Of a DNA stretch of 64,000 nt, positions 23,025-42,128 are shown piece by piece. Position numbers and translations under genes: made by a program. The DNA is from Anaerolineae bacterium (GTDB taxonomy: Bacteria; Chloroflexota; Anaerolineae; B4-G1; SLSP01): assembly GCA_034435555.1 (NCBI GenBank), contig DAOTXC010000006.1, positions 1,435 to 65,434 of the forward strand. Reading direction: 5' to 3'. How positions within the stretch are numbered: the first letter of the stretch is position 1; every line of letters starts with the position of its first letter. Under the pieces are notes generated by a model, which was not told the DNA's origin, ran no database searches, and was given only the letters and a program-made list of their open reading frames with translations.

Positions 23025-23193
23025 TTATCGCTCCTCAAAGATGATCTTGTGCCGCCATAGTTTAGCCTATCTAAGCAATTTGGCAATTGCCAAACGCCCA
23101 AGCTGGGCTATAATAGACGTGTGAACGTGCAAACGTGTGAACACAAAGGGAGGGCCACATGGACGACCACATACTAGGAAAAACCGAGGTCAA

Positions 23194-24252
23194 ATGAAAC
23201 CCCGCATCTACATCGCCTACACCGGCGGCACCATCGGGATGCAGAAGACCGCCGACGGCTACGCACCCGCGCCCGGCTATCTCGCCGAGCGCCTCGCCGC
23301 CATGCCGGAGCTCCAATCACCCCACATGCCGGAGTACGTCATCCACGAGTACGACCCGCTGCTCGATTCCTCCGACATGACGCCCGCCGATTGGACGAAG
23401 ATCGCGCAAGACATCGCCACCCACTACAACGCCTACGACGGCTTCGTCGTCCTTCACGGCACCGACACGATGGCCTACACCGCCTCGGCGCTGGCCTTCA
23501 TGTTGCAGGGCCTCGGCAAGCCTGTCATCCTCACCGGCTCGCAGATCCCGCTCTGCGAGGTGCGCAACGACGCCCGCGAGAACCTCATCACTGTGCTGCA
23601 TCTGGCGGCGCACACCCCCATCCCCGAAGTCTGCCTCTACTTTGGCGACAAGCTCCTGCGCGGCTGCCGCGCCACCAAAACCGACGCCGTCGGCTTCGAC
23701 GCCTTCAGCTCGCCGAACTTCCCGCCGCTGGGCGCGGTGGGGATCAACATCCACCTCGCCCACGACCTCTTCCGCCCGCCGCCACCGCCCGACACCGCCC
23801 TGCGGGTCGAACCGCTCCAGCCGGTGCAGGTGACGGCGCTGCGGCTCTTCCCCGGCATCCCGGCGGAAGTCGTCCGCAACATCCTGCGCCCGCCGCTCAA
23901 GGGGCTGGTGCTGGAGACCTACGGCGTGGGCAACGGCCCCACCGGCGACGCGGATTTCATCGCCGCGCTGACCGAGGCGCACGCGCGCGGCGTCATCATC
24001 CTCAACTGCACCCAATGTCTGCGCGGCAGCGTGGACCTGAGCGGGTACGCCACCGGCGCAGCGCTGGCGCGGGCCGGCGTCCTCAGCGGCTACGATATGA
24101 CCCCGGAGGCCGCCCTCACCAAACTCTACTACCTGCTGAGCCAGGGCGGGCCGCTTCCCCAGATCAAACGCCTGCTGCAAACCGACCTCCGGGGCGAGCT
24201 CACCGTGCCCGCCGCACAAGAAGTTAGCGCATTTGCACAACCTGACCCTTAA
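23194..24252 (+). CDS. ansA: L-asparaginase, type I
   Basis: ATG 23194 (MKPRIYIAYTGGTIGM; TGGTI threonine motif). 352 aa. Confidence 0.85.
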   Translation: MKPRIYIAYTGGTIGMQKTADGYAPAPGYLAERLAAMPELQSPHMPEYVIHEYDPLLDSSDMTPADWTKIAQDIATHYNAYDGFVVLHGTDTMAYTASALAFMLQGLGKPVILTGSQIPLCEVRNDARENLITVLHLAAHTPIPEVCLYFGDKLLRGCRATKTDAVGFDAFSSPNFPPLGAVGINIHLAHDLFRPPPPPDTALRVEPLQPVQVTALRLFPGIPAEVVRNILRPPLKGLVLETYGVGNGPTGDADFIAALTEAHARGVIILNCTQCLRGSVDLSGYATGAALARAGVLSGYDMTPEAALTKLYYLLSQGGPLPQIKRLLQTDLRGELTVPAAQEVSAFAQPDP

Positions 24253-24368
24253 AGGTACAATCACGACACGCAGCACAGGTACAATTCCTATGTGACTTTG
24301 GCACACCAACAGTATTGAAACGTCGCTCGGACTGCCAGTCCGCGTTACGACTATTTTGGAGGAAACAA

Positions 24369-27300
24369 ATGTCCCTCGCTGAAACGCTGATCGTGACGCT
24401 TGGCCGTTCAATCGCCAATGCCCTGGTCAAACGCTGGCTGAGTAAGGAGCCGGCTCAGACTCTCACCAGTAATCTTATTGACCTGGCGGCCAAAGAGGGG
24501 CAACGTCGCTTCAAGGGGCATCAGGAACTCCAGCGGGTGGAGCAGCTGGGCGAACACATCGCCGAGCAATTGCGCCCCCTGGTAGAGAACTTCCGCCTGC
24601 TGCCCAACGAACGCGAGGCGCTTATTTTCGAGGTGGCAACCACGCTGAAGGAGGCCGAAATCTCCGCCGAACAACTCCTCGCGCTGCAACTGGATCATAA
24701 AGCGCTGGCGCGTCGCCTGCGCAAGGCCCGCCCGGAAGCGACCCTGACGCTATCTGCCGCACAAACGGAACACTATGAGCAATTGTTAGACCAGGCCGCC
24801 CTCGCCATCCTCAAAATCAGCGCCGAGTTCCCCAGCTATCAACGGCTGCTGGATACCCGCCAACTCCAGGAGCACGCGGCACTGATCGAGGTGGTCAACG
24901 CCATCCTCTATCGCCCCGCCGGGGAGGATGCGCAATTCCGCAACGCCTATCAGCGGCAAATCCAGCGCAAGCTGGAGCGCGCCGAGGAATCGGGCGCACC
25001 ACGCCTGGAAGAACTCAGCAAAGATCAGAGCCTGAGCGTGGCCTATGTGGAGCTCAAAGTTACCTACCCAACCGCTGAGGACAGGGATGCACCCCCGCAA
25101 GCGGCGGACTTTCTGTCGCACGCCGACCGGCGCGAGGGCCACCCCACAGAGCGGACTTGCGCCGCCAGCGAACTGCTTGCCGATACCCGGCGGCTGGTGC
25201 TCCGGGGCGAGGCTGGTTCCGGCAAGACCACTCTGCTGCAATGGCTTGCACTGCGCGCTGCCCACGGTGATTTTCCCAAACAGATGGCGAATTGGAACGA
25301 TCACGTTCCTTTTCTCATCCGCCTGCGGGAATATGTGAATGCCGACTTCCCCACGCCGGAGCAATTTGTCGAGAAACTGACCTCCACCATCGCGGGAACG
25401 ATGCCACACGGCTGGGTCCACCGGCAACTGGAAGCCGGCAAAGCCCTGATTCTAGTGGATGGCGTGGACGAGCTGCCAGAGGCTCAACGGCCCGCCATGT
25501 TGGAACGTTTGCAAGACCTGTTGGAGACCTATCCCCTGGCTCGTTACATCGTGACCTCCCGCCCGCCCGCACTCAAAGCGGAACGCTGGCCCGAATGGAA
25601 CGACTGGATCGCGGGCGCAGGCTTTACCGAGGCGGCGCTCCAACCTATGAGCCAGGCGCAGTACGAGGCTTTTATTGCCCGCTGGTACCAGGCGCTACCC
25701 GAGAATACCGCGCAGCGTGCGGAAGGCGCTGCGCACCTCCAACGCCTCTTACGCCAGCGCCCGTCCCTGCGCCGGCTGGCGACCAACCCGCTCCTCTGCG
25801 CCTTGCTCTGTGCGCTCCACAAAAAGCGTGGCGATAACCTGCCCACGGTGCGGCTGCAGCTCTACCGAGAGAGCGTCGAGATACTGTTGGAAAGTCGAGA
25901 TACCAAACGCGGCGTGCCAGTGAACGCAGATTACCCAAAACTAAGCCTGGATCAACAACTGGCGCTGATGCGGAGCTTTGCGGGCTATCTGCTGCGCAAC
26001 GGGTACACCGACATAGACATAGCGCAGGCGGACCAACATTTTGCCAACCGGCTGGCCTTTATGAGCCTCCCCCCGGAAGTGACCGGCGAGCGCGTGCGTC
26101 GCTTCTTCGTCGAGCGGACCAACCTGCTGCACGAGCCGGTTGTGGGGCGGGTGGATTTCCGCCATCGCACCTTTCTGGAATACCTCGCTGCCGACCAGAT
26201 TGTGGAAGACGACGAATTTGGGCTGTTGAAAACACATACCAACGATGATCAATGGCGCGAAGTGGTGATTTTGGCCGCCGGGCTGGCCCGCCGCAACGAA
26301 AGCGAGGACTTGCTCACATGGTTACTGGAGCAAGGTCCCCTAGGCAGCCTCCTGGCAGTCGCCTGCCTGGAAACTGTGGTGGAGCTCTCCCCCGCCGTGC
26401 GCGAGGCGGTGCTAACCCGCGCGCGAGAACTGCTTCCACCGCAGGATAGTGACCAGGTGACGCTCTATGCCGCCGCCGGGCCGTCACTGGTGCCGCTGCT
26501 CGCGCCAGATCCAGCCCACGATGCCCAAGCGCGCCTCCGCTGCATTGAGGTGCTGGGGCGCATCGGCGGCGAGGCCGCCCGGCAACAATTGGCCCGCTAT
26601 GCCCAGGATTACGCGCAACGGAAAAGCGAAGAACACGATCTGCAAGAAACCCACGCCCTTGCCACGGCCTGGGCCAACTTTGACCCGGAGACCTACGCCC
26701 GCGAGGTCCTCACTTACTTGCCTGAGCTCTGGTGCGAAGGGGTGCCATTCGACAACCTCGGCCCATTCGCCACCCTCACCCAACTGCAAACACTGATTCT
26801 CAAAATTCTCCTGGTCAGCAACCTCAGCCCGCTCGCCAATCTCACCAAACTCCAGCGCCTGGCTCTCATGCACATGCCAGTTGATGATCTCACTCCACTC
26901 CGAACCCTCACTCAATTGCAACGTCTGGATCTGCTACAAACCCCGGTCAGCAATCTACGCCCGCTCTCCCCCCTCACCCAACTGCAAGCCCTAAGTCTCA
27001 TCAGCACCCAGATCAGCGATCTCCATCAGCTTGCCAACCTCACCCAACTGCAAAGCCTGGATCTCAGCGGTAGCCCGGTCAGCGACCTCAGCCCGCTCGC
27101 CAATCTCAGGCAACTGCAAAGCCTAGTTCTCGGCGGTGCCCCAGTCAGCGACCTCAGCCCACTCGCCGCCCTTACTCAACTGCAACGCCTTGATCTTGGC
27201 TACACCCGGGTCAGCGACCTCAGCCCACTTACCGACCTCACGCAACTGCAATGCCTGGATCTTGGCTACACCCGGGTCAGCGACCTCAGCCCACTTACCG

Positions 27301-27737
27301 ACCTCACACAACTGCAACACCTCGATCTCCCCAACACCCCAGTCAGCAACTTACGCCCCCTCGCCGCCCTCACCCAACTGCAACGCCTGGATCTCAAATA
27401 CACCCAGGTAAGTGACCTCAGCCCGCTTGCCGATCTTACGCAACTGCAACGCCTGGATCTCGACCGCACCCAAGTCAGCGACCTCAGCCCACTTACCGAC
27501 CTCACACAACTGCAACGCCTGGATCTCGAAGGCACCCAAGTCAGCGACCTCAGCTCACTCACTGCCCTCACCCAACTGCATAGTCTAGCTCTCCGCCACA
27601 CCCAAGTCAGCAACCTACGCCCGCTGGCAGCGCTGCCGGCCCTGCGCTATGTGCTTGTAGACAAGCACATAGATATCACCCCTCTTCGCCACCGTCACGA
27701 GCTCCAAATTACTTACGAATTGCGTGAGTATAGATGA
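24369..27737 (+). CDS. NACHT-family STAND NTPase with C-terminal leucine-rich repeats (bacterial NLR-like protein)
   Basis: GGAGG RBS 6 nt before ATG 24369. N-terminal helical domain of about 270 aa. NACHT motifs present: Walker A GEAGSGKTTLL, Walker B KALILVDGVDE, YIVTSRP and NPLLCALLCAL. At least 14 tandem 22-aa LRRs (LTQLQRLDLxxTxVSDLSPL). Confidence 0.85.
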   Translation: MSLAETLIVTLGRSIANALVKRWLSKEPAQTLTSNLIDLAAKEGQRRFKGHQELQRVEQLGEHIAEQLRPLVENFRLLPNEREALIFEVATTLKEAEISAEQLLALQLDHKALARRLRKARPEATLTLSAAQTEHYEQLLDQAALAILKISAEFPSYQRLLDTRQLQEHAALIEVVNAILYRPAGEDAQFRNAYQRQIQRKLERAEESGAPRLEELSKDQSLSVAYVELKVTYPTAEDRDAPPQAADFLSHADRREGHPTERTCAASELLADTRRLVLRGEAGSGKTTLLQWLALRAAHGDFPKQMANWNDHVPFLIRLREYVNADFPTPEQFVEKLTSTIAGTMPHGWVHRQLEAGKALILVDGVDELPEAQRPAMLERLQDLLETYPLARYIVTSRPPALKAERWPEWNDWIAGAGFTEAALQPMSQAQYEAFIARWYQALPENTAQRAEGAAHLQRLLRQRPSLRRLATNPLLCALLCALHKKRGDNLPTVRLQLYRESVEILLESRDTKRGVPVNADYPKLSLDQQLALMRSFAGYLLRNGYTDIDIAQADQHFANRLAFMSLPPEVTGERVRRFFVERTNLLHEPVVGRVDFRHRTFLEYLAADQIVEDDEFGLLKTHTNDDQWREVVILAAGLARRNESEDLLTWLLEQGPLGSLLAVACLETVVELSPAVREAVLTRARELLPPQDSDQVTLYAAAGPSLVPLLAPDPAHDAQARLRCIEVLGRIGGEAARQQLARYAQDYAQRKSEEHDLQETHALATAWANFDPETYAREVLTYLPELWCEGVPFDNLGPFATLTQLQTLILKILLVSNLSPLANLTKLQRLALMHMPVDDLTPLRTLTQLQRLDLLQTPVSNLRPLSPLTQLQALSLISTQISDLHQLANLTQLQSLDLSGSPVSDLSPLANLRQLQSLVLGGAPVSDLSPLAALTQLQRLDLGYTRVSDLSPLTDLTQLQCLDLGYTRVSDLSPLTDLTQLQHLDLPNTPVSNLRPLAALTQLQRLDLKYTQVSDLSPLADLTQLQRLDLDRTQVSDLSPLTDLTQLQRLDLEGTQVSDLSSLTALTQLHSLALRHTQVSNLRPLAALPALRYVLVDKHIDITPLRHRHELQITYELREYR
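26775..27650 (+). repeat. 66-bp tandem DNA repeats encoding the LRR array
   Basis: Near-identical 66-nt units (...cagcgacctcagcccacttaccgacctcac(a/g)caactgcaacgcctggatct...) are visible directly in the sequence. Confidence 0.8.
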
Positions 27738-27744
27738 AAATGTA

Positions 27745-27786
27745 GGACGGGCCGCTGGCCCGTCCCGACAGGCGAGCCGCCTGTTC
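27745..27786 (+). terminator. tandem GC hairpins after the NLR gene (putative terminator, poor U-tract)
   Basis: ggacgggcc-gct-ggcccgtcc followed by acaggcg-agcc-gcctgt. Confidence 0.4.
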
Positions 27787-27837
27787 CACGTTCTACTTCA
27801 GAGAAGAGGAAAAGCCGCGCATTCTCAGTCCTCTCAA

Positions 27838-27865
27838 TTGACACACGCCCCGTTGCGGCTAAAAT
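27838..27865 (+). promoter_or_regulatory. sigma70-like promoter TTGACA-16-TAAAAT upstream of 27921
   Basis: ttgacacacgccccgttgcggctaaaat. Confidence 0.45.
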
Positions 27866-27920
27866 AAAGCCATTAATTCGCTGACTCGTTGACTCGCTGA
27901 TTCGCACAAAGGAGCAATCT

Positions 27921-30902
27921 ATGAAAATAACCTTTACCCTCAATGGCACACAACGTGAGTTCGATACGCACCCCCGCGAGACCCTCTTCGCGCTGCTGCG
28001 CCGGGCCGGACTGCGCAGCCTCAAATTCGGCAGCGAAGATGGCACGGATGGCTACAGCACCGTCCTCATTGATGGGCATCCGCGCAGCGCCACCATCACG
28101 CTCGCGGCCCAGGTTGCGGGGAAAGAGATTCTCACCCTTGAAGGGCTGGGCGGCCCCCAGAAGCGCGGTTGGAAGGGCAGCGCGGCGCTGCACCCGCTCC
28201 AGCGCGCCTTCATCGAGACCGGCGCGATCCAGAGCGGCTACGATACGCCCGCGCTGATCCTCGCGGCCAAGGCGCTGCTCGACCGCAACCTCAACCCCAC
28301 CGAGGCCGAAGTCCGCGATAGCATCAGTGGCATCGTCTCCCGCGAGACGGGCTACACCAAGCCGGTGGAGGCGATCCTTCGCGCGGCGGCCTATCTGCGC
28401 GGCGAGGACCCCGGCCCCATCGAGGGCGGCCCCGGCAACGAGATGTTCACGATGCCGGAGGGGCTGCTCCCGCCCACCGAACCGCCCGCCCCGCTGGATA
28501 GCGCCGGGATGGGCGGCGGCACGCAGACGCGCACCCTGATCCAACCCAAGGTTATCCTCACCGAGGAGGCCGCTGCCTTCCGCGTGGTGGGGCAACCGCT
28601 CCCCAAAGTGGATGCGCCCAAACTGGCGCAGGGCAAGGCCGCCTTCGTCGCCGATTTCGAGCAGCCGGGGATGCTCTACGCGAAGGTGCTCCACAGCCCG
28701 CACGCCCACGCCCGCATCAAGGAGATTGACACCCGCGAGGCCGAGGCGCTGCCCGGCGTCCACGCCGTGCTCACCCACAAGAACGTCCCGCGCGTCGTCT
28801 ACTCCACCGCCGGGCAATCCTACCCCATCCCCGGCCCGCTGGATTACGTGAGCTTCGATGATAAGGTGCGCTACGTGGGCGACCGCGTCGCCGCCGTCGC
28901 CGCCGAAAGCCCGGAGATTGCAGCCCAGGCCGTCGAGCTCATCAAGGTGCAGTACGAGGTGCTGGAGCCGGTGCTCGACTTCCGCACCGCCAGCGATGAG
29001 GGCGCGCCCGTCATCCACGATCAGGACGACTACGTCCCCTTCGGCGAAAGCGACCCCAGCCGCAATATCGTCGCCAAAGTGCGGATTGCGCTCGGCGACA
29101 TGGACGCGACGCTGGCGGCCTCCGAGCATGTCTTCGAGACGGAAGTCATCACGCAGAAGATGAAGCACATCCCCCTGGAGCCGTGGGTCTGCCTCACCTA
29201 CTGGGACTCCGATGACCGGCTGGTGATTATGACCTCGACCCAGGTCCCCTTCCACGTGCGCCGCATCCTCGCGCCCGTGCTGGGGCTTTCGGAGGGGCAG
29301 ATTCGCGTGATCAAACCGCGCATCGGCGCAGCCTTCGGGAACAAGCAGGAGATCTACGAGGACATCGCCGCCCATCTCACCATCGCCACGGGCCGCCCAG
29401 TGCTCTTCGAGCTCACCCGCGAGGAGCAGTTCATCTACACCGTCACCCGCCACCCGATGCTCGTCCGCTTCCGCATCGGCGTGGATAAGAACGGGCGCAT
29501 GACCGCGCAGGATATGTACGCGCTGAGCGACACCGGGGCCTACGGCGGGCACGGCCTCACCGTGTTGGGCAACACCGGCCACAAGACGCTGCCGCTCTAC
29601 AACACGCCCGTCGTGCGCTTCCACGGCGATACCGTCTACACCACCCGCCCGCGCGCCGGGGCCTATCGCGGCTACGGCGTCACGCAGGGCGTCATCGCCA
29701 CCGAGACGCTCATCACCCAGGCCGCCGAGGCGCTGGGGATGGATCCGCTGGAATTCCGGCTCAAGAACATCATCGAGCCGCACACCGAGAACATCATGAG
29801 CAAGGTGTGGAGCGAGGGCCGTGAGGCGCAGGGCGAGATGATCGAGACCTGTGCGTTGCGCGAGGCGGCGAATCAGGGCGCGGCGGCTGTCGGCTGGTAC
29901 GAAAAGTACGGCAATCCCGAATGGCGCGAGATTCCCGGCAAGCCGCACCTCAAGCGCGGCATCGGCGTGGTCTTCCTGATGCAGGGGTCGGGCATTCCGC
30001 ACCTCGATATGGGCGCGGCGAGCATCAAGATGAACGACGACGGCACCTTCAACCTGCTCATGGGCGCGACCGACCTGGGCACCGGCTCGGATACCGTGCT
30101 GGCGCAGATCGCTGCCGAGGTCATCGGCTGCCGGTTGGAGGATATGATCGTCTACTCATCTGACACCGACATGACCCCGTTCGACGTGGGCGCGTATGCT
30201 TCGAGCACGACGTACATCAGCGGCGGGGCCGCCGCGCGCGCCGCCGAGCAGGTCGCCGCGCAGATCAAGGCCGTGGCCGCCGAGATGACCGGGCTGGAGC
30301 CGGAGGCACTCACGCTGCATGATAGCGCCGTCTGGACGCCCGACGGGTACAGCATCAGCTACCGCGACATCGCCATGCACTCGCTGCACCAGCACAACCA
30401 GCACCAGATCATGGGCCAGGCCTCGTTCCTCAGCCCCGTCAGCCCACCGCCGTTCGCGGCGCAGTTCGCCGAGGTGACGGTGGACACGGAGACGGGCCAG
30501 GTGACGTGCGACCGGCTGCTCATCGCGCTGGACTCCGGGCAGATCATCAACCCGCTCACCGCGAGCGGGCAGGCAGAGGGCGGCATGTTGCAGGCGCTCG
30601 GCTACGGCCTCACCGAGGAGCTCGTCTACGACGAGGAAGGGCGCACCGTCAACCCGCGCTTTGACGACTACCGCGTCTTCCGCGCCGACGAGTCGCCGCC
30701 GATGGAGACGCTCTTCATCGAGACCTTCGAGCCGAGCCACCCCGTGGGGGCCAAATCGGTCTCGGAGATCGTCGTCAATGGCGCGGCCCCGGCAGTCATC
30801 AACGCGGTCTACAACGCCACCGGCGTCATGCTCAAGGAGACGCCGCTCACCCCGGAGCGGGTCTGGCGCGCGCTCCGCGAGGCGGAACAGGTCGCGGCGT
30901 AA
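27921..30902 (+). CDS. xanthine dehydrogenase-family molybdopterin hydroxylase fused to a Cys-less CoxS-like N-terminal domain
   Basis: The N-terminus aligns motif-for-motif with [2Fe-2S] CoxS/XdhC-type subunits (…KFGSEDGTDGYSTVLIDG…HPLQRAFIETGAIQSGYDTPA…SGIVSRETGY…) but contains no cysteine. It is followed by an a/b-hammerhead and Mo-binding domains (GAAFGNK; C-terminal ...SVSEIVVNGAAPAVINAVYNATG). AGGAG RBS. Confidence 0.7.
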   Translation: MKITFTLNGTQREFDTHPRETLFALLRRAGLRSLKFGSEDGTDGYSTVLIDGHPRSATITLAAQVAGKEILTLEGLGGPQKRGWKGSAALHPLQRAFIETGAIQSGYDTPALILAAKALLDRNLNPTEAEVRDSISGIVSRETGYTKPVEAILRAAAYLRGEDPGPIEGGPGNEMFTMPEGLLPPTEPPAPLDSAGMGGGTQTRTLIQPKVILTEEAAAFRVVGQPLPKVDAPKLAQGKAAFVADFEQPGMLYAKVLHSPHAHARIKEIDTREAEALPGVHAVLTHKNVPRVVYSTAGQSYPIPGPLDYVSFDDKVRYVGDRVAAVAAESPEIAAQAVELIKVQYEVLEPVLDFRTASDEGAPVIHDQDDYVPFGESDPSRNIVAKVRIALGDMDATLAASEHVFETEVITQKMKHIPLEPWVCLTYWDSDDRLVIMTSTQVPFHVRRILAPVLGLSEGQIRVIKPRIGAAFGNKQEIYEDIAAHLTIATGRPVLFELTREEQFIYTVTRHPMLVRFRIGVDKNGRMTAQDMYALSDTGAYGGHGLTVLGNTGHKTLPLYNTPVVRFHGDTVYTTRPRAGAYRGYGVTQGVIATETLITQAAEALGMDPLEFRLKNIIEPHTENIMSKVWSEGREAQGEMIETCALREAANQGAAAVGWYEKYGNPEWREIPGKPHLKRGIGVVFLMQGSGIPHLDMGAASIKMNDDGTFNLLMGATDLGTGSDTVLAQIAAEVIGCRLEDMIVYSSDTDMTPFDVGAYASSTTYISGGAAARAAEQVAAQIKAVAAEMTGLEPEALTLHDSAVWTPDGYSISYRDIAMHSLHQHNQHQIMGQASFLSPVSPPPFAAQFAEVTVDTETGQVTCDRLLIALDSGQIINPLTASGQAEGGMLQALGYGLTEELVYDEEGRTVNPRFDDYRVFRADESPPMETLFIETFEPSHPVGAKSVSEIVVNGAAPAVINAVYNATGVMLKETPLTPERVWRALREAEQVAA

Positions 30903-30920
30903 TCGAAGAATCACAGCCAG

Positions 30921-30958
30921 CAGCGGGCGGCAGAATTTCTGTCGCCCGCTGTTTTGTC
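30921..30958 (+). terminator. rho-independent terminator
   Basis: cagcgggcg-gcagaatttctgt-cgcccgctg followed by ttttgtctc. Confidence 0.7.
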
Positions 30959-31251
30959 TCTCGCGCTCCGGCGCAAAGGGCTTGTCACACCTCGCCCCCT
31001 GCTTCCAAGCGCCTGACAGGAGACCGCCCCTCGAGCACCCCCATCACCCATCACCCGTCCCCCTCACCCCTTCAGAAGCAAATTTAATCCGACTGTAATT
31101 CAATCTTAACCCTCCCCTGCCAGATTCCGCTTTATAATGAAACTACAGGGACAAAAAAAGTTATCCACTGCCTCGCCACGTCACTTGAACGTTCACTTGG
31201 TCAATAAGTCGAAAATTCGCTGACCCGCTGACTCGCATAGGAGGTGCGCTC

Positions 31252-34200
31252 ATGCGTAAAGGTATGCTCTTTGTAGGAACGCTAATATTGGCCGCGCTCT
31301 TGCTCGTCGCCCTGTTGGCCGGACTTGAGCGAGCCGAGGCCGCCCCCACCCTGCCCACGCCGACGGGCTGCGTCGTCGTGTCGGCCAACATCATCACCGA
31401 TACGATTTGGGACGGTGATTGTTATCTCGTGACCACCGACACGGTCGCCATCATGCCCGACGTCAGCCTTACCATCACACCCCCGCTCAGTGGAACTCTG
31501 GTGCGTTTCCAGCCCGGCGCGCAGTTGCAGGTCTTGGGCACGTTGCAAGCCCTGGGGACGGAGACCCGTCCCATCACCTTCACCTCGGCAGCCGCCACGC
31601 CCGTACCCGGCGATTGGATCGGCATCATCCTGGAAGATGACGCACAGAACGACCGGGACATCATCCGGTACGCTGTCATCGAGTACGCCCGCACGGGGGT
31701 CAAAGTCAACGACGAGGACTTCGTGGAACTCACGCACAACCGCTTCCGCTACAACGGCGGGCCAGGCCCCCGCGATGGCGCGATCAGTGGGGACGCCGAC
31801 AACGCCACCATCACGCACAACGTCATCCACGACTGCCGCAACGGGCTGTCACTCAACGAATCCTTCAACAACGTGATCAGTCACAACAGGCTCTATAACA
31901 TCGAGGCGTATGGCATCCGCCTCTTCGCCGCCACGACCTCCGGCGGCTCGTCCAACCAGATCACCCACAACGAGATTCACGATTGCCAGCTGGCGGCGCT
32001 GCGCCTGGAGATCGGTTCGCAGAACGTGGTGCTGAGCAACACGCTCTATCTCAACGCTGGCAGCGCGGCCATCTTCGTGGATCAGGCGCTCAGCCGCTTC
32101 GAGGGAAATCTGGTCATCGCCAACGGCGCGCCCGGTTACGGCGGCGCGGTCGTGGTGACGGACACCTCCACGCTCTCGGCGATCAGCCGCAACATCATCC
32201 ACGACCCGCACGGCGACGCGCTCGCCTACGATGCCAGCGCGCCATCGCCGGTTCTCGCCACGGCGGGGAACGCCCTCTGCGCGCCGGCGGGCTACGCCTT
32301 GAACAACGGAGCAGGCAACGTGAGCGCGCCCACGAACTGGTGGGGCGCGAACGATCCGGCGGCGGCCATCTTCGGCCCGGTGGACGCCAGCAATCCCATC
32401 ACGCTGGCGCTCGCGGCGGAGGCGATCACGCTCCCCGCCGACGGCCACGCGACGGCGCTGCTCACCGTGACCTTCCGCGCCCCGGATGGGACGATTGTCC
32501 CTGCGCTGCCGCCCGGCGCGCCGGGCTTCGCCCCCGACCCGCGCGAGATCGCGCTGACGACGAGCCTGGGGACGCTCAGCGCGCCCGCTGTCGCCATTGA
32601 TGCGCAGGGCGAGGCCCTCTTCGCACTGACCGCGCCCACCACAGCGGGCACGGCGGTCGTCACTGCGACGGGCTTCTGCGGCTACCCGGTCACGGCAACC
32701 GTGACCTTCGCCGCGACCGACATCGCCATCACCAAGACCACCGCCATCACCGAAGCGGCGCTAGGGGAACCGATCACCTACACGCTGCACTACGCCAACC
32801 TGAGCGGCAGTCTCGCCAGCCATGTCCTCCTCACCGACACGCTGCCCACCGGCACGCACTACATCGCCGATAGCAGCGGGCTTTCGGTCACGTTGCTGCC
32901 GAGCGAGGTGGTCTGGGCGCTGCCCGATCTCGCGCCCTCGGCGACGCACACCTTCACGCTGGTGCTCGGCATCGAGGAAGCGCCCGAACTCTGCGACGCC
33001 ACGCTGGTCAACACGGCGACGCTCACCACCGCCACGGAGGACACCGATCCAAGCAACAACCTCGCCGTCGCACCGCCTGTCGCCATCACTTGCCCCGGCT
33101 ACGTGGACCTGGTCGTGGTGAAGGATGACAATGTCGGCCCGCTGACCGCCTATCACGCGACGGACACGCCACTAGGACAATGGCTCCACAGCGTGCGGCC
33201 CGTCACGGCCCACCGCGAGTTCGTCTACGAGGGCGATTTCGTCACCTATACGATTGCGCTCTTCAACGATGGGCCGGAGACCGCCACCGGGATCATCCTC
33301 ACCGAGACGCTGCCGCTCCACACGACCTACGTGGAGCGGGGCTTCGGCTGGATCGCCGTGGATACGCGCACCTACACCCTCGCCGCGCCCCCGCTCGCGC
33401 CCGGCGAGGGATTCCTCACCTACATGGTCGTGCAGGTGGGCGAAACCCTGCCCGAAGGCGTAAACAACCTGGTCAACCTGGTCTGCGCCTTCGCCGCCGA
33501 GCCGGAGCTCGACCCGAACGATAATTGCAACTACGAGGATACGCCCGTCGTGCGGCGCGCGCTGCGGGTCTCCAAATCGGCCCCGATGTGCATCTCGCCG
33601 GGGCAGGCCTTCTACTACACGCCGCGCTACACGAACACCAACAGCCTCACCGGCTACACCAACGTCCCCCTCACCGACACGCTGCCGGCCTACGTGAGCT
33701 ACGCGGGATCGCCTGTGGGGAATTGGAGCTGCGCCGGCGGCGTCTGCACCGCCACCCTCCCGGAGATCCCCGCCAACACGAGCGCCCGTGGGCCGGTGCT
33801 GCCCGTCCAGCTCAGCGCCGCCTATCCCCTCACCGGCACAGGGCTGATTACCAACACCATCGAGATCAGCGGCGGGTTCCGCTTCGTGCTGGTCTCCACC
33901 GTGGATCTCGGCCCCGATCTGGTTGTGGTGAAGAACGACAACGTCGGGCCGACGCCGCGCGCGACGGCCTTCCTCCAGCAGCAGATCGAGCGGCAGCTCT
34001 ACGGCGCGCCGCGCGCGACCAGCGCCGCAGTGCGGGAGTACGTCCGTCCCGGCGAGATCATCAGCTACACGATCCTCTACGTCAACAGCGGCGTGCTGAC
34101 GGCGACCGAGGTGGTGCTCACCGAGCATCTGCCCCAGTACACGCGCTACCTGGGCGGCGGCTGGGACGATGCGGGCGGCGGGCGTTACACGCTCGCTGTG

Positions 34201-35403
34201 GGCGATCTGGCCCCTGGTCAGGGCGGCGAGGCAGTCTTTATGGTCGAGGTGATTGACCCCTTCCCGCTCGGCGTGGATCGGGTGCTCAACCGCGTGAACA
34301 TCGCCGGCGCGGAGGTGGAATGTGATACCACGAACAACACCTCCTACGACGATACGCCGGTGCAGACCGCGACGCGGCTCTACGTCGCCGCGCGCGACTC
34401 GGAAACGATTGAGGTCTTTGCTGGGACCAATTTCGCCTCGCTGGGTGCATTCGACGCCGGCCCCATCCCCTTCGGCATGGCGGCCTGGGATGGGCAGCTC
34501 TACGTCGCCAACTTCGAGGATGCCACCTTCACCAGCACCGTCTCCAGCTTCGATCTGACCACCCACGCGCCCATCCACACCGTGGATGTGGGACGGCATC
34601 CCACCTACCTGGCGGCGCTGAACGGGCGCATCTACGTCACCAACCACAGCGGCGGCGAGGGCATCACCGTTATTGATGCAGCAACCGGCGCGGTCATCGC
34701 GCGGCTCAGCCCGAACCAGCCGGGCGTCTACGACTTCGGCTTCTTCGGCATCACCGCCGACACAGCTCGGAATCGCATCTACACCACCAAGCGCTACATG
34801 GGCGGCATGGGGCTGTGGGTCATCACGCCCACAGCCAGCGGCTACACCTTCGAGCAAGCCATCGCCACGGACGCCACGCCGTACGCTGTGGCCTATAATC
34901 CCAACAACGATCGCATCTACATCACCTTCGCCCAGCTGAACGAGCTGCGCGTCTACGACGCCGAGACGCTGACCCAGGTCGCCGCCTACGCGACCGGCGT
35001 GCAAGACCCCAACGATCCCGGCTATGGCGGGCAAGGGTTGGCGGTGATGGGCGAGTGCGCCTACGTCAGCAACTACGCGGCAGGCTCAATCACCGTGGTG
35101 GCCGAAGGGCCATGCTGGGAAGGAGAACGGCCCGAGGCAGGACCAGCGCCCGGCGTCCCCCTCAGCGGCGATCACCGCCTTTACCTGCCGCTGGTGCTGC
35201 GCGGGATGCAAACGTATCCCAACATCCGCACCGTGCCGGTGGAAGGCCGCCCGAAGGGGCTGGCTGCGCAGGATGGGCTGATCCTCGTCACCTTGCCGGA
35301 GGAAAATCGCGTCGTGGTGCTTGATGCGCAATTGCTCCAGATCGTCCGGGAGATTCTCGTGGCAGGAGAACATCCCCACACACTCTTGTTGACCGAGCCG
35401 TAA
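31252..35403 (+). CDS. large secreted surface protein: right-handed beta-helix (PbH1) + DUF11 repeats + YVTN-type beta-propeller
   Basis: Signal peptide MRKGMLFVGTLILAALLLVALLAGLERAEA. Repeated (I/V)THNxIHDC beta-helix turns. DLVVVK(D/N)DNVGP DUF11 starts. C-terminal LYVANF…IYVTNHSGG YVTN repeats. 1383 aa. Confidence 0.65.
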   Translation: MRKGMLFVGTLILAALLLVALLAGLERAEAAPTLPTPTGCVVVSANIITDTIWDGDCYLVTTDTVAIMPDVSLTITPPLSGTLVRFQPGAQLQVLGTLQALGTETRPITFTSAAATPVPGDWIGIILEDDAQNDRDIIRYAVIEYARTGVKVNDEDFVELTHNRFRYNGGPGPRDGAISGDADNATITHNVIHDCRNGLSLNESFNNVISHNRLYNIEAYGIRLFAATTSGGSSNQITHNEIHDCQLAALRLEIGSQNVVLSNTLYLNAGSAAIFVDQALSRFEGNLVIANGAPGYGGAVVVTDTSTLSAISRNIIHDPHGDALAYDASAPSPVLATAGNALCAPAGYALNNGAGNVSAPTNWWGANDPAAAIFGPVDASNPITLALAAEAITLPADGHATALLTVTFRAPDGTIVPALPPGAPGFAPDPREIALTTSLGTLSAPAVAIDAQGEALFALTAPTTAGTAVVTATGFCGYPVTATVTFAATDIAITKTTAITEAALGEPITYTLHYANLSGSLASHVLLTDTLPTGTHYIADSSGLSVTLLPSEVVWALPDLAPSATHTFTLVLGIEEAPELCDATLVNTATLTTATEDTDPSNNLAVAPPVAITCPGYVDLVVVKDDNVGPLTAYHATDTPLGQWLHSVRPVTAHREFVYEGDFVTYTIALFNDGPETATGIILTETLPLHTTYVERGFGWIAVDTRTYTLAAPPLAPGEGFLTYMVVQVGETLPEGVNNLVNLVCAFAAEPELDPNDNCNYEDTPVVRRALRVSKSAPMCISPGQAFYYTPRYTNTNSLTGYTNVPLTDTLPAYVSYAGSPVGNWSCAGGVCTATLPEIPANTSARGPVLPVQLSAAYPLTGTGLITNTIEISGGFRFVLVSTVDLGPDLVVVKNDNVGPTPRATAFLQQQIERQLYGAPRATSAAVREYVRPGEIISYTILYVNSGVLTATEVVLTEHLPQYTRYLGGGWDDAGGGRYTLAVGDLAPGQGGEAVFMVEVIDPFPLGVDRVLNRVNIAGAEVECDTTNNTSYDDTPVQTATRLYVAARDSETIEVFAGTNFASLGAFDAGPIPFGMAAWDGQLYVANFEDATFTSTVSSFDLTTHAPIHTVDVGRHPTYLAALNGRIYVTNHSGGEGITVIDAATGAVIARLSPNQPGVYDFGFFGITADTARNRIYTTKRYMGGMGLWVITPTASGYTFEQAIATDATPYAVAYNPNNDRIYITFAQLNELRVYDAETLTQVAAYATGVQDPNDPGYGGQGLAVMGECAYVSNYAAGSITVVAEGPCWEGERPEAGPAPGVPLSGDHRLYLPLVLRGMQTYPNIRTVPVEGRPKGLAAQDGLILVTLPEENRVVVLDAQLLQIVREILVAGEHPHTLLLTEP

Positions 35404-35466
35404 TTGACTTCTCTGAATTCGGGGTATACTGAGAGAAAGTCACCCTGAATGTGAAGGAGAAAAACC

Positions 35467-35778
35467 ATGATCAACCGAGGACGTGAAATCGCCAAGATGA
35501 TGGGGTACGAGACCACCGACGCGCTGTTAGCGGCGATGGGCAGCGGTGAGCTGATCCTGATCAAGTTGCCCGAAGGCGACCAGCTCAGCGCCATCGAATG
35601 GCTGCACGCGCAGCTGGACAAGGTCGAAGACGAAGGATTAGCTGCTGTTTTGGAGGAGATCGCCGCCGGACTGGAACTCGCGCTGGAGCTCCATCGCTAT
35701 CCCCCTGACAGTGACGTTTGCGAGATGGATCTGCCGCACGGCTGGCCCAGCTACTGCGAAAAGCCCTCCCGCGAATAA
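35467..35778 (+). CDS. hypothetical small acidic protein (103 aa)
   Basis: Own promoter (TTGACT…TATACT), GAAGGAG RBS, and a strong terminator immediately downstream. Confidence 0.45.
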   Translation: MINRGREIAKMMGYETTDALLAAMGSGELILIKLPEGDQLSAIEWLHAQLDKVEDEGLAAVLEEIAAGLELALELHRYPPDSDVCEMDLPHGWPSYCEKPSRE

Positions 35779-35794
35779 TAGCGCCACATTTATA

Positions 35795-35825
35795 GCCCCC
35801 CGCTCACGCGGGGGGCTTTTGGTTG
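35795..35825 (+). terminator. rho-independent terminator
   Basis: gccccccgc-tcac-gcggggggc followed by ttttggttg. Confidence 0.8.
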
Positions 35826-35923
35826 CCAAATTTCATCGCGTCCACATCGCACCTTCATCATTCCTTCACATAGAGCGGTTATAATCAAAAGCGTAAATCA
35901 AATCACTACCGTGGAGGTATCAG

Positions 35924-36622
35924 ATGAAATACAATCGAAAACAAACAAGTTGGCTGATGGGATTGACCACCGCGCTGCTGATCGCGCTGTTACTGCCGAG
36001 CGTCACGCTCGCCGCCGGAGGACCGCCTCCGGATCGTGGAAATGCTGCTTCCGGGCAGATGGGCACTATCGGGACGCTGGATGAAGCTACCGAGGCCGCG
36101 CTCGTTGAGGCGCTGGAGGAAGAATATGGCGCGCTCGCGCTCTACCAGGGGATCATCGCCGACTTCGGCGAGGTCGCGCCATTCGTCGCTATCGCCCGCT
36201 CGGAGCAACAGCACGTCAACGCTCTGCTGCGCCTCTTCAGCCGCTACGAACTGACCGCACCCGCTGCACCCGCCTTCGATACGCTGCCCAGCTTCGACAC
36301 GCTGGAAGCGGCCTGTGAGGCCGGCGTCGCCGCCGAGATCGCCGATGCCGCGCTCTATGACACGCTCCTCGAAAGCGTAAGCGCCCCGAACGTCGTCCGG
36401 GTCTTCACCCGCTTGCAGGCCGCCTCGCTTGAGCAGCACCTGCCCGCCTTCGAGGCCTGCGCCAGCGGCGAACCTTACGTCGGTGAGGGGCCAGCCACGC
36501 AGACGATGGCAATGAATCAGGGGCAGAATCGCCCCGCCGAGTTGAATGCGCTGGGCGAGCAACTCCAGCAGGGCTTGCGCAATCTCATGCGCAACGCGGG
36601 GGAGGCGCTCTGCGGACGCTAA
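35924..36622 (+). CDS. secreted ferritin-like DUF2202 family protein
   Basis: GGAGG RBS. Signal peptide. EEEYGALALYQG…ARSEQQHVNALLRLF ferritin-like helices. Confidence 0.55.
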   Translation: MKYNRKQTSWLMGLTTALLIALLLPSVTLAAGGPPPDRGNAASGQMGTIGTLDEATEAALVEALEEEYGALALYQGIIADFGEVAPFVAIARSEQQHVNALLRLFSRYELTAPAAPAFDTLPSFDTLEAACEAGVAAEIADAALYDTLLESVSAPNVVRVFTRLQAASLEQHLPAFEACASGEPYVGEGPATQTMAMNQGQNRPAELNALGEQLQQGLRNLMRNAGEALCGR

Positions 36623-36643
36623 CCCGCATCCCGCCTAAACACA

Positions 36644-36677
36644 AACCGGCCCGCCATGTGCGGGCCGGTTTGCATTG
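36644..36677. terminator. bidirectional terminator between convergent genes
   Basis: aaccggcccgc-catgt-gcgggccggtt. Confidence 0.6.
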
Positions 36678-36684
36678 CCGATGA

Positions 36685-37509
36685 TTACGCTTCGACAAGC
36701 CTCCGGTAAAGCTCCGGGCGGCGATCGCCGACCGTGTCCATCTCGAACTCGCCAGGGCGCAGCACCAGCCGCTTCTGGCGCGCGAGCGTCGGATCAATCT
36801 CTGCGTAGCAGATCTCCGCATCCGTGCCGGCCTGGGCCAACACCTGCCCGCCGGGATCAACGATCTGGCTCCAGCCGAAGAAGCCGAAGCCGCTCTCCTT
36901 GCCCACACGGTTGCAGGCGAGCACGAAGACGCGGTTTTCCAGCGCGCGCGTCCGCGTGACGTACTGCGGCGCGTTCTGCGACCCTTCGGGCCAGTTCGTG
37001 GGCAACGCGACGATGTCCGCACCGGCGAGCGCCAGCGCCCGCATCGCCTCCGGGAAGCGCAGGTCGTAGCAGACGATGATCCCGATCCGCCCCAATGAAG
37101 TCTCCCACACCTGGAAGCCCGTGTCGCCGGGCGTCGTCACCCGATCCACACCCAGGAAGGGCAGATGCGCCTTGCGATAGATGCCCACCAGGCCCTCCGG
37201 CCCGATGAGCGCGGCCACATTATACACGCGCTCCCCCACCCGCTCCAGCAGCCCGATGACGAGATAGGCGCTGGCGTCAGCGCAGGCGGCGTGGAGCGCC
37301 TCCGTCGTCGGGCCGGGGATGAGATCGGCGGCGGCGCGGGCGGCTTCGAGCGTTGCGAAGCCATAGCCGGAGGTCGCGCACTCCGGGAAGACGACCAGGC
37401 GCGCCCCAGCTGCTGTCGCCTCCTGAAAGAGCGCCAGGGCTTGCGCCAGATTGCCCGCGTTCTGTCCCAACTGCGGGTCGAATTGCGCCACAGCTACCTT
37501 CGCTTGCAT
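36685..37509 (-). CDS. carbon-nitrogen hydrolase (nitrilase superfamily)
   Basis: Catalytic E (FPECATSGY) and C (VCYDLRFPE) context. 274 aa. Confidence 0.75.
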   Translation of the reverse strand: MQAKVAVAQFDPQLGQNAGNLAQALALFQEATAAGARLVVFPECATSGYGFATLEAARAAADLIPGPTTEALHAACADASAYLVIGLLERVGERVYNVAALIGPEGLVGIYRKAHLPFLGVDRVTTPGDTGFQVWETSLGRIGIIVCYDLRFPEAMRALALAGADIVALPTNWPEGSQNAPQYVTRTRALENRVFVLACNRVGKESGFGFFGWSQIVDPGGQVLAQAGTDAEICYAEIDPTLARQKRLVLRPGEFEMDTVGDRRPELYRRLVEA

Positions 37510-37541
37510 GATAAACCTCCAACGCCGTTATAAAATCCCGT

Positions 37542-38030
37542 TTAGGCTTCGGTCTCTTTCAAATCCTCGTAAAAAGCGTCAAGGTCCACCTGAGAGAAAA
37601 GGCTATCCAGCAAATTAAAAGCGCGGATCACCTCCTTGCATTGCTCCATCTCCATGGACTTGATCCAATGGACGATGTGCGCTTCGGTGTGGCGCAAAAT
37701 GCCCTCGTACTCCGCGCGCCCCGTCTCCGTCAGTACCAAGAGAACCCGCCGGCGATCCTCCGTGTCCCGCGTGCGCGCCACGAGGTCTCGCGACTCTATC
37801 CCCTGGATCAGCTTGGACATGGTGGGCAGCGAGACGCCCTGGGATTCGGCCAGGCCGGAGAGGCATTGCCCGCCCTCGCGGTACAGGCGCGCCATCACCC
37901 GGAATTGCGGCTCAGTGAAGAGGCCCGCGCTGTGGATGCGCAAATCCTTGCGCATCAGGCGCGAGAGGCGCGGCGTCACCTCGATGATGCTATGCGCGCA
38001 TTCCAGCAATACTCTATCTTTTTCAGTCAT
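37542..38030 (-). CDS. MarR-family transcriptional regulator
   Basis: GGAGG RBS 5 nt before ATG 38030. wHTH core (LSGLAESQGVSLPTMSKLIQGIESRDLVAR). Confidence 0.8.
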   Translation of the reverse strand: MTEKDRVLLECAHSIIEVTPRLSRLMRKDLRIHSAGLFTEPQFRVMARLYREGGQCLSGLAESQGVSLPTMSKLIQGIESRDLVARTRDTEDRRRVLLVLTETGRAEYEGILRHTEAHIVHWIKSMEMEQCKEVIRAFNLLDSLFSQVDLDAFYEDLKETEA

Positions 38031-38083
38031 CAAAACCTCCAACTCTACCCGATGATTCGCACCATCAAGCACGATACCAACAG

Positions 38084-39676
38084 TTACAATCCCAGCGTGC
38101 GCTTACCAGCCCAATGCAACAGCGGAAAGTGTGCATCGTCCAGGCCCGGACTCCACTCCAAGAATTCGGGCGGATCCGTCAAAGCGGCCCCGGATGCGAT
38201 CCGGCAGAAGACCAGATGCGTCTCCCAACCCCACGGATCGCGCGAAGCCACCGAAATCCACGTCCCCGTATTGACAACATTGATGCGCTGCGCCACATCA
38301 CAATCCGCAGCAGCGACATCAGGTGTACACGTCTGCGTATCGGATACGCAGACGTAACGCTGCTTGGGGATATGGGTGTGGCCCAAGATCAAGGCGCGCA
38401 AAGGGACATCCAACTGGCGGAAGCAATGCGCCAAATGGCACGCGACCTCCGGCATGTAATCCAGGTGTTCGTCACCGTTGACAATCGAGGCCCAGATGCT
38501 GCTGCCGTTCAGCAGCACGAAGCTCAAGAACAGATACAACAACCCGCCTTCAACCGATCCCCAGACGACGAAGCTATACAGGCTCACCACGCCGGCGACG
38601 AATCCCAACAGGCTGAGTAGGCCAATCGAGAGCTGCTCCAGGATCAACTTGCCCCAGACCTCCCACGAAAAAGAGCTGCGCTCCTGCGCCACCCCCACGA
38701 TCTCAGCGATCAACGCCGCCGGTAAGCCATTGTAGGATTCGAGCGGCGTCGGGTTAGGGATGTCCACCTGATCGAGCTCCGCCTGCTTGCGTCGCAGCTC
38801 CCGCCAGGCCCAAAAGAGATCCGCAAATCGCCGCAAGAGCACCGCCAGGCCATATAGCGCGTTCTCCCGAAACATCCACACAATCGCCCGCGTGGTCGGG
38901 CGCACATTATCGGCGTAGGGATGGGTCTCTTCCAGCAGATTATAGACGTAACGCGACATCAACAGGCCACGCGGCAACTCCAACAACTGCGGCTTGTGGG
39001 GCAACACCGGATTTAGCATATTGCGGAAGGCATTGGTCGGCTCGTATTGACTGCCGTGCTCGATATACAGCCCGCGCTCGCGATCGTAGTAAAACCACGG
39101 CTCGAAAGCGAGCGCCACATCCAACTGCTCCCGCACCAGCTCGGGCAGAGCGGCGTGATGTTGCCGATAGGCCGCATACGCATCAGCGACCACATCGCGC
39201 AACGCCTGCTGCACCTCCGGCCAATGCAGTTCGGGATCGTGGTTACCTTTGATGAAGAGTACCCGGTTGCCCTGCGCCACAAACCATCCCAAAGCCGCGA
39301 AGAACTGGGGATGGCCCTGCGCCATCTGCTGCACCTTCCAAACGCTCTCCGCCGGCGAAGTTCCCAGACCATACTTCTGCCGGTGGCTGCTCAGCCACTT
39401 GTACTGGCTCACCCCCGTCACCCGCCGCAGTTCCTCCCCCTCGTTGGGCAGTGTCGTAACCTGGATGAAGTCGAAGGTGTCGCCGTTGAGGATCAACAAC
39501 CACGGCTTGTCCTGGTAACGTGGGGCCGGACGCAACGCCTGGTGGTGGCGCAAAAAAGCAAAGAACTGTGCATCGTAGAAGAAATCCTCCGAACGCGCAT
39601 AGCCTCCCTCCTCGGCCTTCCATCCCTCGCTCAGATGCAGGTCGCTCACGATCAGAAGATTTTCAGCAGGCTCCAT
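38084..39676 (-). CDS. membrane-associated calcineurin-like metallophosphoesterase
   Basis: AGGAGG RBS before ATG 39676 (MEPAENLLIVSDLHLSEG). GNHD and GHTH motifs with a hydrophobic hairpin between them. Confidence 0.6.
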   Translation of the reverse strand: MEPAENLLIVSDLHLSEGWKAEEGGYARSEDFFYDAQFFAFLRHHQALRPAPRYQDKPWLLILNGDTFDFIQVTTLPNEGEELRRVTGVSQYKWLSSHRQKYGLGTSPAESVWKVQQMAQGHPQFFAALGWFVAQGNRVLFIKGNHDPELHWPEVQQALRDVVADAYAAYRQHHAALPELVREQLDVALAFEPWFYYDRERGLYIEHGSQYEPTNAFRNMLNPVLPHKPQLLELPRGLLMSRYVYNLLEETHPYADNVRPTTRAIVWMFRENALYGLAVLLRRFADLFWAWRELRRKQAELDQVDIPNPTPLESYNGLPAALIAEIVGVAQERSSFSWEVWGKLILEQLSIGLLSLLGFVAGVVSLYSFVVWGSVEGGLLYLFLSFVLLNGSSIWASIVNGDEHLDYMPEVACHLAHCFRQLDVPLRALILGHTHIPKQRYVCVSDTQTCTPDVAAADCDVAQRINVVNTGTWISVASRDPWGWETHLVFCRIASGAALTDPPEFLEWSPGLDDAHFPLLHWAGKRTLGL

Positions 39677-39684
39677 CTCCCCTC

Positions 39685-41879: not shown

Positions 41880-42128
41880 AGGCTCCCAATCATTAGCTAA
41901 AAGTCGAGATTACACTCGCGTCCCAATTTTACCATGATCGTCGAAAGTGACAAAGCAAAAGTAAGATGGGCTAACTATACGCCGCTCCTTCGAAAATAGC
42001 AGGCGTAAGACAGGTTGGCAACCTGTCTTACATTTTTGTGCTGGATGGTGTGCGCCAGCACCGCTGTCTCCCTTGACGAATGGCCGCTCTGTGCTACAAC
42101 ACTCGCATCAATCCGCGGAGGTATAGAG

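Follow-up and report, generated by a model that had tools for sequence, protein, structure and literature searches.

The subject of this study is an open reading frame (ORF) of 1122 codons in a 64,000-nt stretch of contig DAOTXC010000006.1 from an Anaerolineae bacterium of the Chloroflexota, which is referred to below as the window. It encodes a nucleotide-binding leucine-rich repeat protein (NLR) consisting of an N-terminal NNH1 domain, a NACHT module and C-terminal leucine-rich repeats (LRRs), and it is the sole gene of a strain-variable cassette of 3,621 bp (24216..27836, + strand), which was recognised as an insertion/deletion by comparison of contigs. The NLR gene, its promoter-like site and its candidate terminator behave as a self-contained accessory unit, and this polymorphism at the population level is the main new result. 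We consider the ORF to be a single-gene NNH1-NACHT-LRR bacterial NLR of the bNACHT16 family on an accessory one-gene cassette, and it is likely that it acts as a sensor of phage or conflict that kills or arrests the cell via NNH1.

The gene was placed at 24369..27737 (+) on the basis of the ORF call, Pfam and homologs, and an identical protein is present in three independent metagenome assemblies. Opened at TTG, the ORF would extend over 24315..27737 (+); from ATG 24369 it comprises 1122 aa plus stop codon. Since a GGAGG ribosome binding site (RBS) at 24358..24362 (+) lies 6 nt 5′ of ATG 24369 and conservation among homolog N-termini begins at the position of Met1, this ATG is the likely start, and TTG 24315 was discarded for the same reasons. 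Inside the cassette, a consensus scan and the sequence itself gave a promoter-like TTGCAC-17-TACAAT at 24233..24261 (+), the designation of which is a consensus match alone. Just 3′ of the stop codon, two tandem GC-rich hairpins at 27745..27785 (+) form a candidate terminator according to their folding energy (minimum free energy −34.8 kcal/mol, z −3.65), and no clear U-tract follows them on the + strand. Thereby, the single 1122-aa ORF, the promoter-like site of its own, the strong RBS and the downstream hairpins that a preliminary description of this DNA had listed were all recovered.

Domain architecture and relatives

Pfam identified all three parts of the protein: NNH1 (PF22733) at residues 9-180 with 98.4 bits (cut-off 27), aligned to positions 2-176 of the 177 in the profile; NACHT (PF05729) at residues 274-441 with 76.2 bits against a cut-off of 26.7; and LRR_4 with 133.5 bits over six stretches. 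The canonical NACHT domain proposed earlier was thus recovered by the hidden Markov model (HMM) well over its cut-off, and the four motifs quoted for it are in place and hardly vary among 114 homologs, namely GEAGSGKTT at residues 280-288, LILVDGVDE at 360-368, TSRP at 396-399 and NPLLCALLC at 473-481. Across these 114 homologs, aligned at full length, K286 of Walker A (25206-25232, +), D364, D367 and E368 of Walker B (25446-25472, +) and the sensor arginine R398 are invariant. The winged-helix His599 in the motif FxHRTF (26163-26165, +), which is the equivalent of NLRC4 H443, is kept in 113 of the 114. As judged from PF05729, motif conservation and the structural model, the whole NACHT module with NTPase domain, helical domain and winged helix extends from residue 274 to ~615 (25188..26213, +).

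A full-length AlphaFold model built from a 56-sequence alignment reached a pLDDT of 86 and a pTM of 0.73. Its secondary structure contains a helical spacer between NACHT and LRRs (residues ~616-780; 26214..26708, +; pLDDT ~90), in agreement with the helical linker described before. When the N-terminal domain was modelled separately (pLDDT 80), its sequence up to residue 207 gave an all-alpha bundle with some eight helices, and this NNH1 region, defined by the model and Pfam, corresponds to 24369..24989 (+); a low-confidence linker follows at residues 208-265. An N-terminal helical domain of about 270 aa had been noted earlier: its helical nature holds, the bundle ends at residue 207, and the domain can now be named. 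The first helix (residues 3-23) is conserved, moderately hydrophobic and the most hydrophobic segment of the N-terminal domain, with the consensus M-[PS]-L-L-E-T-L-A-L-T-L-G-A-A-[VI]-A-K-A-I-L-K-x-W-L from Met1. For the NNH1 fold, structure comparison gave generic helical-bundle matches only and none that was informative, and no catalytic or pore-forming signature was found in it by Pfam or structure comparison.

The LRR sensor domain (26709..27698, +) was delimited by Pfam, NCBIfam, Tandem Repeats Finder (TRF), Foldseek and unit analysis. It contains 13 clean 22-residue units at residues 803-1088 (26775-27632), with one degenerate unit on each side as N-cap and C-cap; of the at least 14 internalin-type 22-residue repeats counted earlier, the type was thus correct and the number becomes 13 clean units plus degenerate caps. 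The repeat DNA has a period of 66 nt with 12.2 copies (TRF). A higher-order repeat of 198 nt, also suggested by TRF, was unsupported by self-BLAST identities at offsets of 66, 132, 198 and 264 nt. Units 5-13 share on average 69% amino-acid and 77% nucleotide identity among themselves, and between the DNA of units 7 and 8 the identity is 94%. The variation falls mainly on positions 6, 8, 10, 11 and 13 of the 22, and the leucine scaffold is fixed. In the LxxLxLxx convention, these positions sit on the beta-strand and the adjacent loop of the concave face. Repeats of such high internal conservation have been linked statistically to NLR-type ATPases and to diversification through repeat shuffling; they are typical of fungal allorecognition NLRs and have been reported in Actinobacteria and Cyanobacteria. 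As a separate observation, the LRR-coding region shows a strong negative GC skew (−0.28 to −0.41 at 26500-27750), which, like its low GC content at third codon positions (GC3), results from the repeated LTQLQRLDL...VSDLSPL codons.

The family is large. A word-indexed search in which 8,000 candidates were scored yielded 702 proteins at E ≤ 1e-10, and 108 of the best 120 relatives, most of them with ~1,000-1,250 aa, are annotated with NNH1, NACHT and LRR_4. Named sources are Chloroflexota, KSB1, Cyanobacteria (Nostoc), Actinomycetes, Acidobacteriota and Burkholderiales, and the closest non-identical relative has 44% identity. An exhaustive HMM search with the NNH1 profile against 1.84 billion representatives gave 2,269 clusters (50% identity) at E ≤ 1e-3, of which 906 reached E ≤ 1e-30. 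Among the 150 best-scoring family members, NNH1 starts at residue 1-5 in almost every case. For four homologs with long contigs, no shared neighbour was seen: one is located amid RelB/ParE, PIN and AbiEi/AbiEii genes, one beside MazE/PIN and GIY-YIG genes, and two amid housekeeping genes. In this small sample, homologs are found sometimes, but not regularly, in defence or toxin-antitoxin neighbourhoods. Since the four homologs have no neighbour in common and no PADLOC defence family was found beside the NLR gene in the window, the NLR appears to be a single-gene system with no conserved partner, as far as a sample of this size tells. The stand-alone status and the lack of a separate effector gene nearby, both stated earlier, hold in that no partner was found at the locus or conserved beside the four homologs.

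Kibby et al. (bioRxiv 10.1101/2022.07.19.500537) define NNH as ‘NACHT N-terminal helical domain’, assign LRRs to the ‘antigen-receptor type’ sensors, distinguish an ‘adaptor’ class for N-terminal domains, and list proteins with NNH1, NACHT and Imm-LRR in NACHT clade 4 (Table S1), including bNACHT16 from Vibrio campbellii (WP_005534681). Residues 29-407 of the ORF are collinear with the first 399 aa of bNACHT16 (Table S2) at 29% identity (BLASTP, E 3e-43), and from the architecture and this match the ORF can probably be placed in clade 4. Both proteins have the same three-part architecture in the same order, homologous NNH1 and NTPase regions, the conserved winged-helix His and a single gene. 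They differ by their 29% identity, in length (950 aa for bNACHT16 vs 1122 aa here), in the number of LRR units, which is lower in bNACHT16, and in the host, Vibrio vs an uncultured Chloroflexota bacterium. The rarity of NACHT plus LRR in bacteria had been overstated in the preliminary description, as the architecture is catalogued with clade 4 and bNACHT16 and has hundreds to thousands of relatives. ‘Uncommon’ applies to this domain order in relation to tetratricopeptide-repeat (TPR)-like sensors, which dominate signal transduction ATPases with numerous domains (STANDs) overall, but not in view of the many homologs in many phyla. The ORF thus belongs to a known kind of system, with an architecture that has been catalogued and partly tested. 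Bacterial proteins with NACHT and LRRs were termed ‘bona fide bacterial NLRs’ by Conte et al. 2025, and the ORF is a divergent Chloroflexota addition to this group, to which the ancestors of animal NLRs are considered to be related.

Comparison with other known systems showed likeness at different levels. With Foldseek against the PDB, the whole-chain model aligns over ~1,000 columns with the animal NLRs NLRC4 (4kxf, E 6e-18), NOD2 (5irm, E 4e-17) and NLRP3 (6npy, E 1e-12); the order of NACHT and LRRs, Walker A and B, the sensor Arg and the winged-helix His are shared and the global model superposes. In contrast, identity is 15-17%, and the animal proteins carry ribonuclease-inhibitor LRRs of 28-29 residues vs the 22-residue internalin type here. 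The ORF thus has neither the ribonuclease-inhibitor LRRs nor the Death-fold CARD/PYD or BIR N-terminus that characterise animal NLRs. For the LRR part of the model, the matches were internalin A (E 1.7e-23, 40% identity) and the LRR domain of Chlorobium Roco, and Listeria internalins and Chlorobium Roco have the 22-residue LRR solenoid with 31-40% identity in the repeats in common with the ORF. What is shared is the repeat scaffold alone: the NCBIfam model internalin_A (E 1e-59) matched only the LRR region, with 202 bits vs a cut-off of 1600, secretion and anchoring signals were not found here, and the protein accordingly lies outside class 1 internalins as defined by family cut-off, signal peptide and anchoring domains.

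Avs proteins and the STANDs covered by PADLOC follow the same logic of a single gene with N-terminal effector, STAND NTPase and C-terminal repeat sensor, but the sensors of Avs are mostly TPR-like and the effectors are nucleases, SIR2 and similar enzymes. The comparison with Avs families suggested earlier gave no match to any Avs family model in the PADLOC scan of the protein. The EruA NACHT antiphage model NF058535 (NCBIfam) scored 43.3 bits against an equivalog cut-off of 1000, which leaves the protein outside this family. Plant CC-NLR resistosomes (ZAR1) and partners of fungal HeLo/HET-S-type systems are alike by analogy only, through an all-helical N-terminus with a conserved, moderately hydrophobic first helix; the NTPase here is a NACHT and not an NB-ARC domain, and the N-terminal domain matched neither the Rx_N, HeLo and MLKL_NTD models of Pfam nor such a fold in structure comparison.

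A strain-variable cassette between ansA and the Mo-enzyme gene

The NLR gene is flanked by the genes of an asparaginase (ansA) and a molybdenum (Mo) enzyme of the aldehyde-oxidase/xanthine-dehydrogenase family, so that the unrelated housekeeping flanks named before could be identified as such. An exact look-up of the NLR protein gave one contig of 3.8-4.0 kb in each of three independent assemblies, and the NLR gene is the only gene on each of these contigs. The exact look-up of the Mo enzyme led to contig L084 (36.7 kb), which shares its sample with one of these three (L001). Contig L084 joins window positions 24075-24215, which belong to the 3′ part of ansA, via the dinucleotide CG to window positions 27837-38903, at 99.86% identity. 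In this empty haplotype, CG thus stands in place of 24216-27836, and exactly the NLR gene, promoter-like site, RBS and hairpins are missing. The empty junction is inferred from assembled contigs, and a de Bruijn assembly at k=141 needs spanning k-mers for such a junction. The possibility that the NLR is a universally syntenic core gene, named earlier as an argument against a role in defence, does not apply, as the gene is missing from a haplotype of 99.86% identity in the same sample.

The direction of the change can be approached via the 3′ end of ansA. In the empty site, ansA ends with ...ELTVPAAD* and its TGA overlaps the −35-like TTGACA of a promoter-like site of the Mo-enzyme gene (TTGACA-16-TAAAAT, 27838..27865, +; from a consensus scan), which is located just outside the right edge of the cassette and is present in filled and empty haplotypes. 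In the window, ansA has a different tail of 11 residues, the last 11 codons and the stop being supplied by the cassette (24216-24252). Since the homology to ansA relatives ends at about residue 356-358, i.e. at ...ELTV, where the empty-site ansA ends, the empty form looks ancestral and the filled form of the window looks to have arisen by insertion and not by deletion.

At the cassette ends, no direct or inverted repeats of ≥8 nt and no target-site duplication were detected, and the cassette itself contains no recombinase; the only ORF of ≥250 aa is the NLR gene, and shorter ORFs all overlap it in other frames. A model of the cassette as a transposon or mobile element was rejected, because terminal repeats, target-site duplication and recombinase were not found. 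Also, no sign of a recombination tract was seen at the junction, as single-nucleotide polymorphisms between filled and empty haplotypes are evenly spread and do not cluster.

Composition sets the cassette apart from the remaining sequence. The NLR gene has a GC content of 0.611 and a GC3 of 0.703, compared to a GC3 of 0.80-0.90 for 11 other genes of the window, and the dinucleotide distance delta* of the cassette is 105 vs 48 ± 22 for the other segments compared (top 1.8%). The lower GC that had been seen by eye was borne out by this computation, with the difference that the GC3 deficit is gene-wide (0.70-0.73) and not restricted to the LRR part, where the lowest value (0.66) occurs.

A third state of the locus was found in other NLR-bearing haplotypes. 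After 27909, contigs L001 (positions 3836-3974) and L003 (3772-3814) depart from the window into low-GC sequence, which a metagenome scan identified as the end of an IS110-family insertion sequence (IS) element. The corresponding transposase of 494 aa, with DEDD_Tnp_IS110 and Transposase_20 domains, is encoded on contig L086 (1-2014). The insertion point at 27909..27910 (no strand assigned) is 12 nt ahead of the Mo-enzyme ATG and just 5′ of the Mo-enzyme RBS, and the insertion is present in two other samples. Since the identical IS110 end also adjoins an unrelated Ser/Thr kinase gene in contig L085, the element is multicopy. The region between ansA and the Mo-enzyme gene therefore has at least three states, i.e. 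filled, empty and IS-flanked, and these haplotypes in near-identical strains represent a clean natural experiment. The accessory status of the NLR gene is supported by the empty-site haplotype, the GC3 of 0.70, the outlying dinucleotide composition and the IS110 neighbour in other haplotypes.

Proposed function and alternative explanations

The earlier reading as a candidate defence or abortive-infection STAND sensor appears sound in view of the domains, the homologs and the match to bNACHT16. According to the mechanism that we propose, the resting protein would be a nucleotide-bound, autoinhibited monomer, and the concave face of the LRRs with its variable positions would bind a phage protein or an infection-altered host protein. 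The ligand would free the NACHT module for oligomerisation, which should need K286 and D364/D367/E368 and be restrained by His599; these motifs themselves are observed. The oligomer would then cluster NNH1 domains, leading to growth arrest or cell death before phage release. As output of NNH1, one may consider that its conserved N-terminal helix perturbs the membrane or that a conserved host factor is recruited. The arrest or killing step is proposed because bNACHT16, which has the same architecture, becomes toxic in Escherichia coli once the equivalent His or a Thr is mutated: substitutions of the winged-helix His and the hyperactive T584P variant inhibit growth (10.1101/2022.07.19.500537). 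Protection against DNA and RNA phages is described in the same study for many further bNACHT proteins. As the cassette has a promoter-like site and a candidate terminator and no partner gene, the system can be regarded as self-contained. In addition, the fact that two of the four homolog contexts are beside toxin-antitoxin or AbiE genes was counted for a role in immunity.

Several observations weigh against a phage sensor acting via NNH1. For no NNH1-NACHT-LRR protein is a phage-defence phenotype documented in the texts consulted; what Kibby et al. say in words about bNACHT16 is limited to the toxicity of hyperactive alleles, the heat map being a figure. No defence genes were found within ~10 kb of the NLR gene. 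PADLOC gave nothing significant for the NLR protein itself, the best matches being PDC-S68 and PDC-S60 in the P-loop region (E 8e-4 to 3e-3). The NLR protein is 100% identical across four assemblies, so that variation expected from an arms race is not visible at this depth. For an action of NNH1 at the membrane, the 19-residue Kyte-Doolittle mean of the first helix is 1.2, compared to the usual transmembrane threshold of 1.6. Finally, some clade-4 relatives carry a calcineurin-like or PNP_UDP_1 enzyme N-terminal to NNH1 (10.1101/2022.07.19.500537), which suggests that NNH1 can be a spacer or adaptor.

The last of these points leads to an explanation in which NNH1 serves only as adaptor or spacer and a host protein, encoded elsewhere and recruited on oligomerisation, is the effector, so that the gene alone is a sensor. 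With the enzymes ahead of NNH1 in clade-4 relatives, the missing catalytic signature, the generic structural matches and the existence of an ‘adaptor’ class in the scheme of Kibby et al., such a role would be conceivable. However, hyperactivated Vibrio bNACHT16 is toxic alone in E. coli, so any partner would have to be broadly conserved, and no conserved partner gene was found in the cassette or at the four homolog loci; furthermore, almost all of the 150 best-scoring members have NNH1 at their very start (residue 1), and the first helix of the domain is conserved. We therefore regard a pure sensor as improbable. A somewhat larger, but still small chance is given to an NLR for conflict or cell death with a non-phage trigger, which would serve kin or non-self recognition or programmed death in filaments like fungal HET-type NLRs. 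Most of the relatives belong to Chloroflexota, Cyanobacteria (Nostoc) and Actinomycetes, which include filamentous or multicellular forms, LRRs of high internal conservation are a hallmark shared with fungal allorecognition NLRs, presence/absence polymorphism in one population also fits an allorecognition locus, and PADLOC found no defence island among ten neighbours of the NLR gene. On the other hand, the characterised bacterial NACHT proteins are antiphage, the alternative state of the locus is empty and contains no second allele or ‘het’-like partner gene, and homologs are known from unicellular lineages as well, for instance Vibrio (bNACHT16) and Burkholderiales.

STAND NTPases also include transcription regulators, and the LRRs resemble internalin A, so that a housekeeping or regulatory STAND NTPase of the MalT/AfsR type or a secreted internalin-like LRR adhesin, both non-immune, were considered as well. 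Neither Pfam nor NCBIfam revealed a DNA-binding domain, a signal peptide, a wall anchor or an internalin inter-repeat domain, internalin models remain far under their cut-off (202 vs 1600 bits), a near-identical strain does without the gene, and the composition of the gene is foreign to the genome. Non-immune roles are thus poorly supported and very unlikely.

Within the favoured phage or conflict sensor, the part played by NNH1 deserves a separate consideration. An effector function would, according to the preliminary description, have to reside in the N-terminal domain; this domain could be named NNH1, and its role as effector stays an inference in view of the enzymes N-terminal to it in relatives. 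That NNH1 itself may be the effector is favoured by the toxicity of bNACHT16 in a heterologous host, by the N-terminal position and by the conserved first helix. In a more specific and rather doubtful version, NNH1 would be a hitherto unrecognised cell-death executioner, the N-terminal helices of which are freed on NACHT oligomerisation and bundle into a membrane-disrupting assembly. If true, a NACHT protein encoded on a naturally segregating one-gene cassette would do in bacteria what the CC-NLR resistosome does in plants or the HeLo mechanism in fungi. NNH1 is a widespread domain, and the conserved His599 allows toxic hyperactive alleles to be designed.

Neighbouring genes and further observations

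Genes farther out encode an M3 peptidase, TauE, an S10 peptidase and a beta-helix/DUF11 protein. A PADLOC analysis of ten window neighbours gave no family match beyond a trivial ATPase-domain overlap of HtpG, and thus no defence island. An Rfam scan of the whole window had no matches, and no exact protein record was found for ansA when read from an internal ATG.

Three large ORFs of the window were recorded in addition. The beta-helix/DUF11 protein (31252-35403, +) is a right-handed beta-helix/NosD protein of 1383 aa with three DUF11 (CLIPPER) repeats. A protein of 1121 aa (43933-47298, −) has an N_BRCA1_IG Ig-like domain as sole Pfam match, and an ORF of 582 aa (38084-39832, −) has no Pfam or PADLOC match at E ≤ 1e-5. 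Furthermore, the perfect palindrome GTAAGACAGGTTGGCAACCTGTCTTAC occurs within a repeat of ~90-100 nt in two intergenic positions of the window (~42005-42031 and ~61069-61095) and in L085 (2471-2570), an unrelated metagenome contig; 0 matches are expected by chance, and there is no Rfam match. This repeat may be similar to repetitive extragenic palindromic (REP) sequences or miniature inverted-repeat transposable elements (MITEs).

The nearest relative genome found is an Anaerolineales metagenome-assembled genome (L004, CAZDDI010000020.1), the Mo enzyme of which is 90% identical at the amino-acid level. Its gene order is Mo enzyme, beta-helix/DUF11 protein and ansA (73%), compared to ansA, NLR, Mo enzyme and beta-helix protein in the window (23137-35403), which indicates that this neighbourhood has been rearranged between relatives.

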